A stretch of DNA of 20,000 bases from Chiloscyllium plagiosum (Eukaryota). The notes beneath the pieces were generated by a model. That model saw only the letters and a program-made list of their open reading frames with translations. It was not told the origin of the DNA and ran no database searches. Below are positions 3,041-20,000 of this stretch, in pieces. Numbering within the stretch: position 1 is the first letter of the stretch; every line of letters starts with the position of its first letter. Both the position numbers and the translations under genes were made by a program. The stretch spans positions 10,598,303 through 10,618,302 of the forward strand of contig NC_057719.1 in assembly GCF_004010195.1 (NCBI RefSeq). The letters run 5' to 3'.

Positions 3041-3164
3041 AAGAATTCTGTGTCTAATATCCTGCCCCACTAGTTACCTGATGAAGGAGCAGCTAGTGCT
3101 CCAAAAGCTAGTGCTTCCAAATAAACCTGTTGGACGATCCTATTGTGTGATTTTTAACTTTGTC
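3041..3164 (+). mobile_element. Penelope-like terminal fragment, hammerhead with mutated GAAA
   Basis: CTGATGA(3078-3084)-A-GGAGCA-gctag-TGCTCC-AAAA-GCTA then caaataaacctgttgga shared with 10907-10929 and similar to ~16775-16790. Confidence 0.72.
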
Positions 3165-4720: not shown

Positions 4721-5025
4721 ATATTACTTACACTGTGGAATCAGGCCCTTCAGCCCAACAAGTCCACACCGACCCTCCGAAGAGCAACCCACCCAGACCC
4801 ATTCCCCTACATTTACCCCTCCACCTAACACTACGGGCAATTTAGCGTGGCCAATTCGCCTAACCTGCACATTTTTGGACTTTGTGGGAGGAAACTGGAG
4901 CAAACCCGTGCAGACACGGGGAGAATGTGCAAACTCCACACAGACAGTTGCCTGAGGTGGGAATTGAACCCGGGTCTCTAGCACTGTGAGGCAGCAGTGC
5001 TAACCACTGTGCCACCATGCCACCC
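4721..5025 (-). mobile_element. HE1-like V-SINE
   Basis: Reverse complement similar to 155-485; B box GGTTCAATTCC; short tttatt flanking duplication. Confidence 0.92.
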
Positions 5026-5108
5026 CTTTATTGAAGTGATCATTACAAGTGAACAGATTAATGTTATTCATATGGACTTTCAGAAAGCACCAAGAGAGTG
5101 AGAGTTCT

Positions 5109-5450
5109 GGGGTGGCATGGTGGCTCAGTGGTTATCACTGAAGCCTCACAGCGTCAGGGGACTGAGTTTGATTCCACCCTCGGGATTCTGTCTGTGTGTG
5201 GTTTGCAAATTTTCCCCGTGAGTGTGTGAGTTTCCTCTGCTTTCCTTCCACAGTCCAAGGATGTGCAGGTTAGGGTGGATTAGCCATGCTAAATTGCCCA
5301 CCATGTCCAGGGACATGCAGGCTAGATGGATTTGGTGAGGGGAATGCAGGGTTACTGGGATGGGGTGGTCTGGATGGAACGCTCTTTGGGGTGTGGACCT
5401 GATGGGCCGAATGGCCTGCTTCCACACTCTAAGGATTCTATGATTGAATT
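5109..5450 (+). mobile_element. HE1-like V-SINE (variant subfamily)
   Basis: ggggtggcatggtggctcagtggtt head, gagtttgattcc B box, ccatgctaaattgccc, gggccgaatggcctg tail. Confidence 0.9.
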
Positions 5451-5941: not shown

Positions 5942-6187
5942 CAGAGAAACAGGAGCTAGCTGATCAGATGAAACACCTACATTCTAGCCTCACTGTACAG
6001 GCTACAGCTGAAATGTTTAAAGACCCACGACGCGTGATGAGGCTGTGGCTGTCTAGTGCTGAACTGCCTGCAAGGGAACGTTCTGACGGCCAGAGTTTCT
6101 CAAGGTCATCAACATCCCCAACGCAAGTGACCTCCGCCCCAACCAGCTCCAGATCCCCTCCTCACACGTTGCTCCTTTTATTTACTC

Positions 6188-6352
6188 AAATGTAACAAAA
6201 CCACTGTGGAAGCTGGAAATCTGAAAAAAAAAGCAGGGAATGCTGGGGAACCCCTTTGAACCATTCTGAAGAAGATATCAGACTCAAAATGTTCACTCCG
6301 CTTCCCTCCCCACAGCTATTGCCAGATCTGCTCCAGCATTCCCGATGCCTGT
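6188..6352. mobile_element. Inverted Penelope-like mini-insert with target-site duplication
   Basis: Antisense arm (gctggaaatctg...gggaatgctgg) then sense arm CTGAAGA (6266-6272)...ccagcattccc; flanks ttgctccttttatttactc (6169-6187) / ttgctccttttatctattc (6353-6371). Confidence 0.7.
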
Positions 6353-6525
6353 TTGCTCCTTTTATCTATTCCATTATCTCCTCCCTCTTCCATGTGGAAA
6401 CCACCTTAGAGTAGCACAAGAGTAGTTAAAGCATGGAAGGGTTTGCACAGCAATAACAGGGATGTGCATTGACATAGCATCGAGTCACAGCAAGAGACAA
6501 GGAACCAAATGATAAAAGAGTAAGG

Positions 6526-7205
6526 TGTAGTGATTTCAACAAGGTCAGCCACGTGGAGCTCATCGAATATGAGTCACCTGATTGGGGCTGTTAATCTTGG
6601 CTAATCAGGGAGCCCTGGCTGACACATAAAAGCAGGACTGTCACACCTGCACACACACAGCATGGGTGCTGGGGAAAAAAAAGCACTACCGCAGTTAGGC
6701 GGTAGTGTGGGGGTTAAAAAAGAAAAAGAAAAAGAAAAAGAAAAGAAAAAAAGGAAAAAAGACAAACAGGAGGGTCAGGGGTTAACAAAATAAACAGGAG
6801 TGGCTTGAATAAAAAAAAACAGGAGTGTCACACACAACATGGGTGCTGGGGAAAATATAAGCACTACCGCAGTTAGGCGGTAGTGTGGGGGTAATAAGAA
6901 AAAAAGAAGCTGGACTATAAGGGCACTGCTTGTCACTGGCCACTCGGGTGCTTCCTCTCTTCCTGGTGGTGGAAACTCAATAAAGATTCGTGCACCTTGC
7001 GTCTTTCACTGTGTCTCACACCCGCACACACACAACATGGGTGCTGGGGAAAAATAAGCACTACTGCAGTTATGCGGTAGTGTGGGGGTAATAGAAAAAA
7101 AAATTTAAAATAAGAGAAAAAATAAATAAATAAACAGGAGTGTCAGACATCCTGTTCACTCCAAGAGCTGGCTCTGAGGGAGCTGGATCAGTGTGTGCAA
7201 GGACT
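6526..7205 (+). mobile_element. LTR-like sequence (3'-truncated), interrupted by poly(A) retro-copies
   Basis: Starts TGTAGTG; has cctgatt...aatcagg inverted motif and TATA-like cataaaa; resumes at 7132 (aaacaggagtgtcagacatcc...ggact); 3' part absent. Confidence 0.55.
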
Positions 7206-7429
7206 AAGAAAAAAAGCAGACTGAAAGGGCACTGCTTGTCACTGGCCACTCGGGTGTTTCCTATCTTCCTGGTGGTGGAAACTGAATAAAGATCCGTGCA
7301 CCTTGTGTCTCTCACTGTGTCTCACACCTGCACACACACACACACAACATGGGTGCTGGGGATAATAAGCACTACCGCAGTTAGGCGGGAGTGTGGGGGT
7401 AAATAAAAGAAGAAAAAAAGAAAAAAAAA
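6641..7429 (+). repeat. Four co-oriented 5'-truncated copies of a poly(A)-tailed (L1/Tx1-like) 3' end
   Basis: catgggtgctgggg..agcactaccgcagttaggcggtagtgtgggggt plus A-rich tail at ~6641-6760, 6829-6908, 6919-7130, 7225-7429. Confidence 0.85.
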
Positions 7430-7468
7430 CAAGACTGTCAGGTAGGATGAAGAAAATCCAGGATTCAC

Positions 7469-7630
7469 CAGCTTCCCAGAATTGTTAGAACACAGATTTT
7501 GAATGGGGTGGTTCATGTTTATGCAGCAGTCATTCTTGAAATCAGGAATCAAATCCGTTGGAAGTAATATGTTTTGATTTGGTGTACGGCTGCTGATCTT
7601 CATAATCTGAGTGATGGAATCTAAAGTTGC
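7469..7630 (-). CDS. Candidate host-gene exon, 162 nt (ATLDSITQIMKISSRTPNQNILLPTDLIPDFKNDCCINMNHPIQNLCSNNSGKL)
   Basis: Unique sequence, 54 open codons between acceptor ttcccgttaaactag and donor CTG|gtgaat. Confidence 0.38.
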
Positions 7631-7927
7631 CTAGTTTAACGGGAATTGTAATGGTGAGTGTCAGAACTTAGCCAAATGGAAGGAGGAAAGGTTAAGAGAG
7701 ATCTCCTTAATACTTTGTTGCTTTATAACTCTGACAGCTCAATGTTGCACATTCATTGTGAAGAACGCTAATTCTGAACTGCCAAGTGCTACAAAACTGT
7801 CACAATCAGATATCAGGTAATTGCACTTTTTTTCCCAGTTTTATCTGAGCAGGCTGACAAAGCTGAAAGCTTGAAATGTGATTATTTAAAAAACAACTAC
7901 AGCTGTAAGATTAACTGAGAGAAGAAG

Positions 7928-10329
7928 ATTGATTGGAATCTCCTTACTGCAAATGGTCTGGACGGAGTCGATTTTGTCAGGTGTGTTCAGGAAGGGTTTC
8001 TGACTCAACATGTAGATAGGCCGACTAGGGGAGAGGCCATATTGGATTTGATGCTAGGCAATGAGCCAAGCCAGATGTCAGATATCTCGGTGGGAGAGCA
8101 TTTCGGTTACAGTGACCACCACTGCCTCACCTTTACCATAGCCATGGAGAGGGATAGGAACAGGCAATTAAGGAAGGTATTTAATTGGGGGAGGGGAAAT
8201 TATACTGCTATTAGACAGGAGTTGTGGAGTATGAATTGGGAATAATTGTTCTATGGGAAATGCACAACAGAAATGTGGAGACTGTTTAAGGAGCACTTGT
8301 TGCGAGTGTTGGATAACTTTGTCCCACTGAGACAGGCAAGAAATGGTAAGGTGAATGAGCTTTGGATGACAAAAGAAGAGGAGATTCTTGTCAAGAGGAA
8401 GAAGGAAGCTTACTTAAGGTTGAGGAAGCAAGGATCTGGCACAGTTTTAGCGGATTACTAGGTAGTTAGGAAAGAACTCAAAAATGAACTGAGGAGAGCT
8501 AGGAGGGGGCGCAAATTAGCCTTGGTGGGAAGGATTAGGGTAAACACAAAGGTGTTCTCCACTTACATGAGGAATAAAAGAATGAACAGAGAGAGTGTAG
8601 GGCTGATCAGGGATAGTGAAGGGAACTTGTGCCTGGAGTCTGAAGAGGTAGGGGAGGCCGTAAATGAGTATTTTTGCTTCAGTATTCACGAGAGAGTGTT
8701 GATACCTTGTTGATAGAACACCATGGGCCAGGTTAATAGGCTCGATCAGATTGCTATTAAAAAAGTGGATGTGCTGGAAATTCTGGGAAGCATCAAGATA
8801 GATAAGGCCCCAGGGCCAGACCACTTATATCCAAGGTTACTATGGGGAGTGAGGAATGAAATTGCTGCGCCTCTGGGGATGATCTTTGCATCTTCACTCT
8901 CCATGGGAGTAGTACTAGATGATTGGAAAGAGGCAAATGTTGGTTCCTCTGTTCAAGAAAGGAAAGAGGGAAATCTCTGAGAATTATAGTCCAGTCAGTC
9001 TTACGTCAGTGGTAAGCAAGGTACTGGGAAGGATTCTGAGAGATAAAATTTATAACTATTTGGAAAAACATAGTTTGATTAAGGATAGTTAGCGTAGCTT
9101 TGTGAGGGGCAGGTCATGCCTCACAAGTCTTATTGACTTCTTTGAGGATGTGAAGAGACAAATTGATGAAGGCCAAGCAGTAGGTGTGGTTTATATTGAT
9201 TTCACTAAGTCATTTGATAAGGTTCCCCATGGTAGGCTTATTTAGAAAGTTAGGAAGTATGGGAGACAGGGAAATTTGGCTGTCTGGATACAGAATTGGC
9301 TGGCTGAAAGAAGTCAGCAACTGGTAGTGGATGCAAAGTATTCTGCCTGGAGGTCGGTTATCAGTGGTACCCTGCAGGGATGTGTTCTTGGGCCTCTGCA
9401 CTTTGTAGTTTTTATAAATGATTTGGATGAAGAAGTGGAAGGGTGGGTGAGTAAGTTTGCTGATGACACAAATGTCGGTAGTGTTGTAAATTGTGTTGAG
9501 GGCTGTTGCAGGCTACAACAAGTCATTGACAGGATGCAGAGGTGGGTTGGGAAGTAGCAGATGGAGTTCAGCCTGGATAAAAGCGAAGTGATTAGTTCTG
9601 GAAGGTTGAATTTGAATGCTGATCAAAGGATTAAAGACAGAATTCTTGGCAATGTGGAGGAACAGCAGGCTCTTGGGGTCCACATGCATGCATCCCTCAA
9701 AGTTGCCACCCAGGTTGATAGGGTTGTTAAGAAGGTGTATGGTGTGTTGCCTTTCATTAACGGGGGATTGTGTTTAAGAGCCGCGAGGTTTTGCTGCAGC
9801 TCTGTAAAGACCTGGTTAGACAACACTTGGATCATTGTGTCCAGTTCTAAAGATGTAGATGCTTTAGAGAGGATCCAGAGGAGATTTACCTGGATTGGAG
9901 GGCATGTCTTGTTGAGATAGGTTGAGTGAGCCAGGGCTTTTCACACTGGAGAGAAGAAGGAAGAGAGGTGACTTGATAGAGGTGTACAAGGTAATGAGAG
10001 GCATAGGTAGAGTAGACAGTCAGCGACATTTCCCCAGAGCAGAAATGGCTGTCACAAGGGGTCATAATTTTATGGTGCTTGGAGTAAGTTATAGGAGAGC
10101 TGTCAGAGGTAGGTTCTTTACGCAGAGAGTGGTGGGTGTGTGGAATGCACTGCCAGCAGTGGTAGTAGAGTCAGAGACATTAAGGACACTTAAGCGATTG
10201 CTGGACAAGCACATGGATGGCAGTAAATTGAGGGGTGTCTAGGTTAGGTTCATCTTAGATTAAGATAAATGCTCAGCACAACATCGTGGGCCAAAGGGCC
10301 TGTACTGTGTTGTATTGTTCTATGCTCTA
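7928..10329 (+). pseudogene. CR1 LINE ORF2 relic (end of AP endonuclease, RT, C-terminus, 3' UTR) with stops and frameshifts
   Basis: FLTQHVDRPTRGEAILDL...SDH; KAPGPD; NYSPVSLTSV; FDKVPH; QGCVLGP...SKFADDT; FFTQRVVGVWNALP; (ttctatg) tail. Confidence 0.97.
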
Positions 10330-10659
10330 GGAATGTTTCTTGAAGACGAACATCGACCTGGGAGAGAGTTACATGATGTTATGAACTTTTTTTCTCCCTC
10401 ATGTGCTTCACAGTTTGAAAGTCAGATGTTTATTTTCCTAACTCAGTGATGAGCCATGGGGACAAAGTCGATGCCCTCCATAAACTGGTGGGAGAGTCAC
10501 AATTTATAATTAACTCCTGCCAATTCAACATGATGGAGACTTCATAGAGCGTGTTGTTTCTACTCACTCATTCAGAAGGTCATACTCATGTTCCTTATGT
10601 GCAAGTCAAGATTCTCATAGATATTACACCACGGTTTAAAAAATCATGCTTTCGAAACA

Positions 10660-11088
10660 TCTCTTTTGCTCCTCTGTTCAGCTCCCCATCACATTTTCAT
10701 CAAATTTCTCCAATCTTCTCACATCTATCTACAAGCTTCAAGTCCCTGATCCCTGGAGTCGCACTCATTAACCTTCTCCGCACCCTTGATGTGGAGATGG
10801 TGGGGTTGGACTGGGGTGGACAAAGTCAGAAGTCACACGATACCCAGGTTATAGCCCTACAGGTTTATTTGAAATCACAAGCTTTCAGAGCATTGCTCCA
10901 AAAATATGATTTCAAATAAACCTGTTGGAATATAACCAGGTGTCATGTGATTTATGACCTTTTCTGCACCATCTCTAAGGCTTTCACATCACTCCTGACT
11001 ATGGTGCCCAGAGCCGGACACATTACTCCAGTTGAGACCAAACCAGTGTTTTGTGCAGGTTTATCATAACTTCCTCAGTTTTGTACTG
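10660..11088 (-). mobile_element. Old antisense CR1 fragment split by a Penelope-like hairpin
   Basis: Minus strand YKTEEVMINLHKTLVWSQLE (EYKSREVML...LEYC-like). Confidence 0.75.
10785..10956. mobile_element. Inverted Penelope-like mini-insert (long hairpin) with target-site duplication
   Basis: caggtttatttgaaatca (10860-10877) pairs perfectly with 10907-10924; flanks accttctccgcacc (10771-10784) / accttttctgcacc (10957-10970). Confidence 0.8.
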
Positions 11089-12308: not shown

Positions 12309-12433
12309 TTATTTCTCAAAGATGGCAGTGGTATAGGGCACTCCAGCCAAAGCTCCATCAGTTCCTTTTCTTTTTTTTTCTCTCTCTCTTATGTGTTTTC
12401 TTTCCTCTTCTGTCTTTTTCCTCTTGTGCCAGT

Positions 12434-12627
12434 GGCCCAGAGTGGAGTGAGGGTGGCCAGAGGGCCCTGAGTGGGGGCAGTCAGTGAGCCTGGAATGGGG
12501 ACAGCCAGTAGGCCCGGAGCAGAGTGGGAATGGCCCGGAGCAGAGTGGGGATGGCCCTGAGTGGAGTGGGGATGGTCCGGAGTGGAGTGGGGGTGGTCCG
12601 GAGGGGGTTGGGGATGGCCCGGAGCAG
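12434..12627 (+). repeat. G-rich ~21-bp minisatellite, block 1
   Basis: Tandem ggcccggag(tg/ca)gagtggggat units. Confidence 0.9.
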
Positions 12628-12629
12628 AG

Positions 12630-12817
12630 GAATCGACGTTTTGGGCATAAGCCCTTCTTCAGGAATCAGGAATCAGGAATCTTCAAGAAGCCCTGAAGAA
12701 GGGCTTATGCACGAAACGTCGATTCTCCTGTTCCTTGGATGCTGCCTGACCTGCTGCGCTTTTCCAACAACACATTTTCAGCTCTGATCTCCAGCATCTG
12801 CAGTCCTCACTTTCTCC
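12630..12817. mobile_element. Inverted Penelope-like insert with hammerhead motifs on both strands
   Basis: 34-bp arms 12630-12663 / 12692-12725 (32/34 match); sense arm is the reverse complement of 14685-14811. Confidence 0.85.
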
Positions 12818-13252: not shown

Positions 13253-13435
13253 AGTTACTGACTTTTGGAGAGCTGTTTGCTCTCTCCTCAAGATGCTGAC
13301 TGTTGGAGTACAGTTTGTGCTCTTCTCAAGTTTGCCTTCTCAAGGTTCGGACTTGGGGAAGAGTTCCCCTATCAAATTGCTGATTGTTGAGATAGAGCTT
13401 GCCCTCTCCTCTGCTGACTGGTGGCATACAGTCCT

Positions 13436-13640
13436 GGTGGCGATTGGAGTGGGGATGGTCCAGAGTGGAGTGGGGATGGCCTGGAGTGGAGTGAAGTGGG
13501 GATGGTCTGGAGTGGAGTGAGGATGGCCTGTGCCCTGAAGTGGTGACAGCCAGTGGCCTAGAGTAGAGTGTGGGTGGCCCGGAGTGGAGTGGGGGTGGCC
13601 CAGAGTGGAGTGGGGACAGCAGCCACTGGGACTGCAGTGA
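13436..13640 (+). repeat. G-rich ~21-bp minisatellite, block 2
   Basis: Same ggagtggagtggggatggcc unit as block 1. Confidence 0.9.
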
Positions 13641-14130
13641 AGATGGTCTGGAACTGATGAAGCCCGGTCAGACTCCATGGAAGCCCTTATAGAAAGACTG
13701 CAATGCCTGTCTTTTGAGCTTAATTCTTATTTTCCTAACTTATATTTTATATATCTGTAATGTAAACTTTCTCTTTATTTTCTCTTTTTTTGTACCTAAG
13801 ATGGTGCTGTGTGTTGACGACATTGTCCACTTTTCCCTGTAGTCTTGTTCTTTTGTAATGCAAGTACACATGACAATAAACACAATTCTAATTCTAAATT
13901 GATCTGAGGTTTCAACTGGATTGGATTGCACTGTTCTTTACAACACTGATGAGATGCAGTATGTTAACTCCACGAAGCCAATGCCACTTGGAAAATCAGG
14001 AGGTTAGAGGGAGTTACATTTGGTTGCATTCAATGGTCTGAACCCAGCTGGGAAATTTATTATTCCCATTGAGGTCAGAACCAGATATCAAGCCAAGAGC
14101 TGGTATATGTAATGTCATGTTCACATCCAC

Positions 14131-14684: not shown

Positions 14685-14811
14685 GGAGAAGGTGAGGACT
14701 GCAGATGCTGGAGATCAGAGCTGAAAAATGTGTTGCTGGAAAAGCACAGCAGGTCAGGCAGCATCCAAGGAGCAGGAGAATCAACGTTTCGGGCATAAAC
14801 CCTTCTTCAGG
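14685..14811 (-). mobile_element. 127-bp Penelope-like insert with perfect 13-bp target-site duplication
   Basis: aataataatacta at 14672-14684 and 14812-14824. Confidence 0.88.
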
Positions 14812-16681: not shown

Positions 16682-16812
16682 TTGATGCGGAAATGCCAGT
16701 GCTGGACTGGGATCACATGACACCAAGTAAACGTCACCTGACGAAGGAGCAGTGCTCGAAAGCTTGTGACTTCAAATTAACCAGTTGGACTATAACTTGG
16801 TGTCATGAGATT
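16682..16812. mobile_element. Inverted Penelope-like mini-insert
   Basis: Left part similar to 10786-10850; catgacaccaagt (16716-16728) pairs with acttggtgtcatg (16795-16807). Confidence 0.78.
16733..16770 (+). ncRNA. Minimal type-I hammerhead ribozyme motif
   Basis: GUCAC-CUGACGA-AG-GAGC-AGU-GCUC-GAAA-G-CUU-GUGAC; perfect 5-bp helix I, palindromic AAGCUU helix III. Confidence 0.62.
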
Positions 16813-19247: not shown

Positions 19248-20000
19248 GTAAGTGATTGTTATTTAAGAACTTACCTTGACGCCAACGGTCTTTTTGCAGT
19301 AGAGAGCAGCGGGAGCTGGGCGGAGGTGAAGTCGGAGCGCAGAGCTGGTTGGGAAGGTAAGTGATTGTTATTGTTGTTCCTCTCAACAATAAGTATAACG
19401 CTTTGGATACTGTTAGGGGGGACGGCCTAGCAGGGGTAAGCTGCAGTGACCGGGTCTCTGGCACGAGGTCCGGCTCTGAGGCTCAGAGGGAAAGGGGGAG
19501 AGGAGGAGAGCGCTAGTTATAGGAGACTCTATAGTTAGAGGGACAGACGGTGGTTCTGTGGACATGGGCGAGACTCTAGGATGGTTTGTTGCCTCCCGGG
19601 TGCCAAGGTCCGAGACGTCTCGGACCTTGTCTTCAGAATCCTTAAGGGGGAGGGTGTGCAGCCAGAAGTCGTGGTGCACATTGGCACCAATGACATAGGT
19701 AGGAAGAGGGGTGGGGAGGTCTTTCAGGAGCTCAGGGAGTTAGGCTGGAAGCTAAAAGCTAGGACGGACAGAGTCGCCATCTCTGGGTTGTTGCCGGTGC
19801 CACTTGACAGTGAGGCAAGGAATAGGGAGACAGTGCAGTTGAACACGTGGCTGCAAGGAAGGTGTAGGAGGGAGGGCTTCAGGTATTTGGACAATTGGAC
19901 TGCATTCTGGGGAAGGTGGGACCTATACAAGCAGGACGGGTTGCACCTGAACCAGAAGGGCAACAATATCCTGGGAGGTAGGTTTGCTAGCACTCTTCGG
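19248..20000 (+). pseudogene. CR1 5' region and ORF1 SGNH/GDSL esterase domain (frameshifted, runs off window)
   Basis: VVPLNNKY; VIGDS (GDS 19522-19530); frameshift ~19550; CCLPGAK, HIGTND (19683-19694), DGLH (19935-19946), open to 20000. Confidence 0.92.

Follow-up and report, generated by a model that had tools for sequence, protein, structure and literature searches.

In a 20,000-nucleotide stretch of the Chiloscyllium plagiosum genome (the window), an LTR-like repeat holds an array at positions 6630-7440 in which four 3' ends of a poly(A)-tailed element alternate with eight short copies of a single target motif. The most likely history is that three insertions occurred at this locus, two of which carried read-through cargo from other copies of the LTR. 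We consider it probable, with a good deal of room for doubt, that a site-preferring poly(A) LINE inserted three times at the TATA box of the LTR and that two blocks of the array, A and B, were imported by read-through. The array looks mosaic rather than purely sequential.

The window is repeat-rich DNA with LINE fragments and SINE-like repeats. Two of the five frames scanned in it gave Pfam matches, to RVT_1 (9246-9554) and to a GDSL esterase (19539-20000). The RVT_1 match is contained in a decayed LINE on the + strand at about 7919-10330, which we take to be CR1-like. The frame with the GDSL esterase domain (E 7.9e-13) is open and continues beyond the window edge; such domains are typical of ORF1 in some CR1-group LINEs. 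A minisatellite with a 21-nt G-rich unit forms two arrays (12433-12632 and 13426-13652) with about 800 nt of other repeats between them, as though insertions had divided a single array. Two SINE-like repeats placed head to head (4883-5026 and 5109-5252) form an inverted repeat with 144-nt arms, 76% complementary and separated by 82 nt, and short palindromes at 12621-12734 and 10844-10940 have arms of 43 nt and 34 nt with 28-29 nt between them; copies related to these palindromes lie at 14685-14811, 16758-16800 and 3097-3138.

Evidence from other loci was obtained from four runs, chosen from 24 listed, which were mapped on positions 6000-7950 at 85% likeness. X2 and X5 are from organism A (two studies), X9 is from organism B, and X21 is a poly(A)-primed single-cell RNA library. 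The mapping figures rest on the best 15 of 775 joints, the best 12 of 611 joint inserts, the best 24 of 2116 loose ends and the best 24 of 52341 pieces.

The 5' arm of the LTR-like repeat occupies 6526-6629 on the + strand. It starts with TG, ends in a TATA-like box and is common to organisms A and B (organism-B contig 6299-6593), and at 6526 the read depth rises from about 20 to about 1e5 in all three DNA runs. The paralogues add a further LTR feature, an AATAAA downstream. Their loose ends show TATAAA or a variant of it (e.g. AATAAA) at the start of the motif, and the target is therefore the TATA-like box together with the bases behind it. The initial annotation had placed the array inside an LTR; the paralogues back this context, but the LTR is not resumed after 7440, and its piece at 7146-7205 is broken off 11 nt short of the paralogues' AATAAA (loose end behind 7194). 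No match for a target-site duplication of the LTR itself was found at the locus, where the LTR 3' end is missing. Organism-B depth falls to zero at 7452-7583 and both flanks farther out are covered; such a hole by itself proves nothing, and could reflect either a change where the LTR end was lost or a mere contig gap.

All four element copies lie on the + strand, share a core and a hairpin, and end in GGGGGT followed by an A-rich tail. Copy 1 (6644-6763), with which block A begins, consists of the last 71 nt of the element (6644-6714) and a 49-nt tail. Copy 2 (6831-6906), with which block A ends, has the last 62 nt (6831-6892) and a 14-nt tail. Copy 3 (6919-7131) opens block B and comprises the last 171 nt (6919-7089) and a 42-nt tail, and copy 4 (7225-7426) the last 176 nt (7225-7400) and a 26-nt tail. 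The common orientation and core of the copies, and the differences between their tails (74-85% A), agree with what had been described from the sequence. The copies had also been said to differ in their 5' truncation points, and three distinct points do exist, but copies 3 and 4 start alike, because both begin where the same upstream element sequence has been lost. This common start is based on the loose ends before 6919 and before 7225 and on an alignment of the two copies, which differ by 11 mismatches and 8 gap columns in 177. The upstream sequence in those loose ends is identical, in the DNA and RNA runs, and the copies are therefore 5'-truncated ends of a longer element.

Microhomology shared with the end of the target was seen at two of the three 5' junctions examined, as TCA (3 nt) at copy 1 and CA (2 nt) at copy 2, and was absent at the 14-nt stub at 6778. 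The hairpin near the element 3' end (6683-6708, + strand) has a 10-bp stem and a 6-nt loop (-17.0 kcal/mol) and repeats on the same strand at 6861, 7058 and 7369, weakened in copy 4. Overall, the 175-nt element end folded no better than shuffles (z -0.21). An Rfam scan of 6000-8000 returned no family at gathering score; two matches (E 1.3 and 2.9) were rejected, lying far below gathering scores and outside the array.

At two or fewer mismatches, AAACAGGAGTGTCA occurs six times in the window, all within 6630-7440, against 0.33 expected, and six occurrences were reached in 0 of 200 shuffles. When target copies are placed by position, that is, between a tail and the next piece, eight copies of about 14 nt are found (T1 to T8, at 6630, 6764, 6792, 6817, 6907, 7132, 7214 and 7427, all on the + strand). 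The motif sites listed in the initial annotation were borne out, but the copy at 6907-6917 had been overlooked. Two variants are present. The locus variant, with G at motif position 3 and C at position 9, is carried by T1 (6630-6643), by T5 (6907-6917), which lies between the copy-2 tail and copy 3, and, with a 1-nt deletion, by T7, which together with the short A-run that ends block B occupies 7206-7223. The common variant, with A and G at these positions, is carried by T2, T3 and T4, which with two spacers make up 6764-6830, and by T6, which with 60 nt of LTR 3' arm makes up 7132-7205 (loose ends behind 6643 and 7194). T8 (7427-7440), the outermost copy on the right, has the position-9 C of T1 without the locus-variant G. 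Most paralogues have A at 6632, and G stands at motif position 9 in the paralogue loose ends behind 6624.

The two spacers, of 13-14 nt (6778-6791 and 6804-6816), had been likened to extremely truncated insertions. Both exist, and the first consists of the element's last six bases and a short tail, but the second is not recognisably element-derived. Lying between T3 and T4, it has a few bases and an A-run unlike the element end, and is possibly the tail of another RNA or a run of untemplated bases.

Ten of the best 15 of 775 joints link 6624-6630 to 7130-7169, with examples in all four runs. These joints skip about 500 nt and therefore represent paralogous LTRs without insertions. Further LTR-to-element junctions were listed at 6621>6994, 6624>7014, 6628>7257, 6637>7005 and 7161>7225, four of them located at the target and the fifth some 16-20 nt downstream of it. 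All five junction types rest on X5 contigs and one also on 3 RNA reads; the likeness cut-off for joints was 85% and their sides, where given, measure 21-37 nt, and joints of this kind are often repeat-derived. Element-to-target joins were listed at 6872>7123, 7049>7128 and 6677>7141, and 61 X5 contig ends behind a tail gave a consensus of an A-run followed by TAAACAG (agreement 0.49). It had been proposed that a poly(A) non-LTR element repeatedly hit and duplicated one LTR motif; the empty paralogous sites and the five junction types uphold this, and the tail-flank consensus and the microhomology at copies 1 and 2 back it further. These observations support a sequence preference of the element that reaches beyond the 6630-7440 locus. 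Three of the X5 joints (6628>7257, 6637>7005 and 6621>6994) have depths of 163-377 against 10-19 for single copies, which suggests that some LTRs were amplified with an element insertion already in place.

The preference does not seem to be exclusive. Depths over the element and over the LTR were 977422/104717, 1952753/81627 and 438068/79887, a 5- to 24-fold ratio that is not a copy number, and on this measure the element appears several-fold more abundant than the LTR. Two longer contigs (X2 record 7 and X5 record 15) are listed for the element end only. Given the depth excess and the element-only contigs, specificity for the LTR of the array is partial at best. In the accessible part of PMC4494074, target specificity is defined by more than 20% of flanks falling in one sequence type. 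At 6630-7440, eight tails or starts use one 14-nt motif, which may run against a relaxed L1-type target; beside it stand the two element-only contigs.

The initial annotation had read the array as an ordered record in which each event recreated its own target. Because a local insertion duplicates a copy only beside itself, a tree of the targets must, in such a record, keep the order of the array. Among all 429 ordered trees the lowest cost is 10 changes (10 columns), against 6 for an unconstrained tree. In simulated local histories an excess of at least 4 changes arose in 1 of 10604 cases at 10% divergence, 16 of 6988 at 15% and 167 of 5240 at 25%; the observed divergence of the target copies is 13.75%. 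The test covers 10 columns in 8 short copies, with two diagnostic sites and a simple mutation model, and its statistic was picked after the variant pattern had been seen. The array is not a clean ordered record, because the two target variants alternate, unlike the products of local duplication, at a cost of 10 rather than 6 changes. Judged from its target copies, it is probably not an ordered insertion record at all.

In the mechanism that we propose, the element would be a non-LTR retrotransposon with a poly(A) tail, probably a member of the Tx1 clade, with a preference for TAAACAGGAGTGTCA, which is the TATA box of an abundant LTR together with the bases just behind it. The element would nick the DNA at the A-run, where its own poly(A) tail would prime reverse transcription (TPRT); reverse transcription would usually end early, and the junction would be made by microhomology. 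Each insertion would duplicate about 11-17 nt of the target, so that the site would be open to further insertion. Target changes private to the locus would mark T1, T5, T7 and T8 as duplicates made locally, which would therefore delimit three insertions. One would be copy 4 alone. Another would be block B (6919-7213), made up of copy 3, the donor's target, 60 nt of the donor LTR and a short A-run, and another block A (6644-6906), in which copy 1, three targets with two stubs, and copy 2 would have arrived together as a finished array. We infer that both blocks would be read-through transcripts (3' transduction) of other LTR copies that had already been hit, and copy 4 is probably the oldest insertion.

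Between T5 and T7, block B presents in order the element, its tail, downstream flank, a new A-run and a target, the textbook arrangement of a transduction. Its weak points as a transduction are a second A-run of only about 10 nt and an end that falls 11 nt before the LTR AATAAA. At odds with a history of three insertions are the 5' point shared by copies 3 and 4, which is unexpected for independent events, the loss of the LTR 3' arm after 7440, which needs an extra deletion, and the lack of the locus-variant G in T8.

The same common start of copies 3 and 4, together with their identical first 32 nt and a minority C common to 6976 and 7282, would fit a history in which copy 4 with T7/T8 arose when copy 3 with T5/T6 was duplicated locally at the DNA level, the LTR end being lost then or later, and only block A was imported. 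A single event could then account both for the LTR piece that breaks off and for the LTR end that is missing. We regard this history as rather unlikely. T6 and T8 differ at a diagnostic site, so that one parallel change is required, and copies 3 and 4 show 11 differences in about 170 nt as well as unlike tails. Moreover, another LTR site joins the element at the same position (7161>7225), and the 5' point of copies 3 and 4 can therefore recur. The 12-mer that T5 and T7 both have upstream is uninformative here, 11-12-mers being common to 5 of 10 tail pairs.

A mosaic could also have arisen at the DNA level, by ectopic gene conversion or unequal exchange between array-bearing LTRs with element ends serving as homology. 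Element sequence does stand at both ends of block A, and some junction types in X5 reach 10-20 times single-copy depth (146-377 against 10-19), so multi-copy donors exist. Block B, however, ends in LTR and an A-run without homology to what follows, and several switches would be required, which leaves exchange of this kind an unlikely source of the array.

It is improbable that all pieces were inserted locally in turn, each duplicating the local target and adding to an ordered record. A target copy does follow every tail, and sequential tandem insertion around a target-site duplication is known for SINEU-3, according to the available text of PMC4494074. Such a history would, however, require 4 extra parallel changes at two sites, and it leaves unexplained both the LTR piece at 7146-7205 within the array and the common start of copies 3 and 4.

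An artefact of assembly in this A-rich repeated region is very unlikely, although none of the contigs listed (best 24 of 52341 pieces) spans the whole array and 6709-6762 and 7320-7437 were skipped in mapping, because the element copies differ from one another, an X5 contig (6000-6659, 3 differences) extends from the unique flank 16 nt past the LTR/copy-1 junction, less than the 31-nt rule asks for, and the copy-2/T5/copy-3 junction is bridged by an organism-B contig (6828-6948, depth 10) whose short side is 31 nt. The latter contig has single-copy depth, 7 differences and 4 gaps, and could stem from the orthologous locus or from another one like it. In X2 and X5, contigs of unique sequence have their left ends at 7438 and 7441.

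The element that the three-insertion history calls for has a poly(A) 3' end, 5' truncation and a target-site duplication, features that are common to L1 and others and are not diagnostic of Tx1. Its placement in the Tx1 clade, read from the last 176 nt rather than from an ORF, is suggested by the poly(A) tail, the duplicated target, precedent, and the whale shark, for which Tx1 but no full L1 is reported in the accessible text of PMC8455134. A protein search with the translated 3'-end frames found no relative; 4 matches (E 2e-6 to 6e-4, with 4-11 stretches each) were set aside as compositional, having no RT or endonuclease domain. Element motifs gave 0 matches in viral_contigs and 0 in a first metagenome scan, and the single match in a second scan was discarded as chance, being unlike the element beyond the pattern. 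A SINE (SINEU or one with a tRNA, 5S or 7SL head) was rejected, with no Rfam match in 6000-8000 and other copies extending upstream of 6919 and 7225. DIRS/Ngaro-type and Penelope-type elements were also rejected, as an A-tail closes each of the copies and a target copy comes next.

Targeting of other transposons by Tx1, tandem insertion and transduction are already published. The crocodilian Tx1 LINEs Tx1-8_Crp and Tx1-4_AMi likewise prefer specific LTR retrotransposons (PMC4494074, available portion); the comparison is by LTR preference alone, and the present case differs in its shark host, in its site at a TATA-like box and in a clade assignment that is indirect. Tx1L of Xenopus laevis likewise uses one site of another multicopy transposon, Tx1D, and its endonuclease recognises about 10 bp (PMC1919474 and, for the site, PMC4494074, both as far as their accessible text goes). 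In the shark an LTR takes the place of the piggyBac-type DNA transposon as target, and the preference seems looser. SINEU-3 likewise inserts in tandem into another transposon, Mariner-N4_AMi, around a TSD of 15 nt (PMC4494074, same portion); the copies here come from a longer element by 5' truncation rather than from a SINE headed by an snRNA, and the shark array looks mosaic, not purely sequential. L1, R7Ag and R1Bm likewise transduce downstream sequence, by read-through RNA with a new tail (PMC7265360, in the part available), whereas the cargo here would be the element's own target and earlier copies, delivered, as this one locus suggests, to the same kind of site. The mosaic look of the stack appears to be what is added to these known systems. 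A literature search, which did not take in Repbase or most subscription journals, turned up no description of a Tx1 element in sharks that targets an LTR or a TATA box.

The RNA library X21 contributed 2270 reads, stranded on the element, of which 16 had at least 99% identity. With so few near-identical reads, this represents family-level RNA or internal priming, not expression of the locus. Transcription from the flanking target has been proposed for SINEU-3 (PMC4494074, in its accessible text). Here we raise, tentatively and as a doubtful extension of the three-insertion history, a self-feeding loop in which 5'-truncated stubs with no promoter of their own, once behind the LTR TATA box, gain a Pol II promoter, and whole arrays, transcribed by read-through, are re-inserted at the corresponding site in other LTR copies. 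The loop is compatible with the variant pattern and the multi-copy junctions. The RNA loose ends listed tell against it: those before 6919 (148 reads) and before 7225 (378 reads), with an agreement of 0.84-0.85, continue into upstream element sequence and not into LTR. No cluster of RNA starts is among those listed for X21, a poly(A)-primed single-cell library being a poor test of starts.

The finding adds an LTR promoter motif, a short and defined target, to the known targets of site-preferring vertebrate LINEs; the novelty of the TATA target would depend in part on where in their LTR elements Tx1-8_Crp and Tx1-4_AMi land. Because blocks can be imported, such stacks are not readable as simple time-ordered records of insertion. 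If the LTR promoter drives the stubs, the promoter of one transposon would be both landing site and launch pad for another, and if the loop holds, the arrays would be non-autonomous retroposons, lengthening as they pass from one LTR to another.
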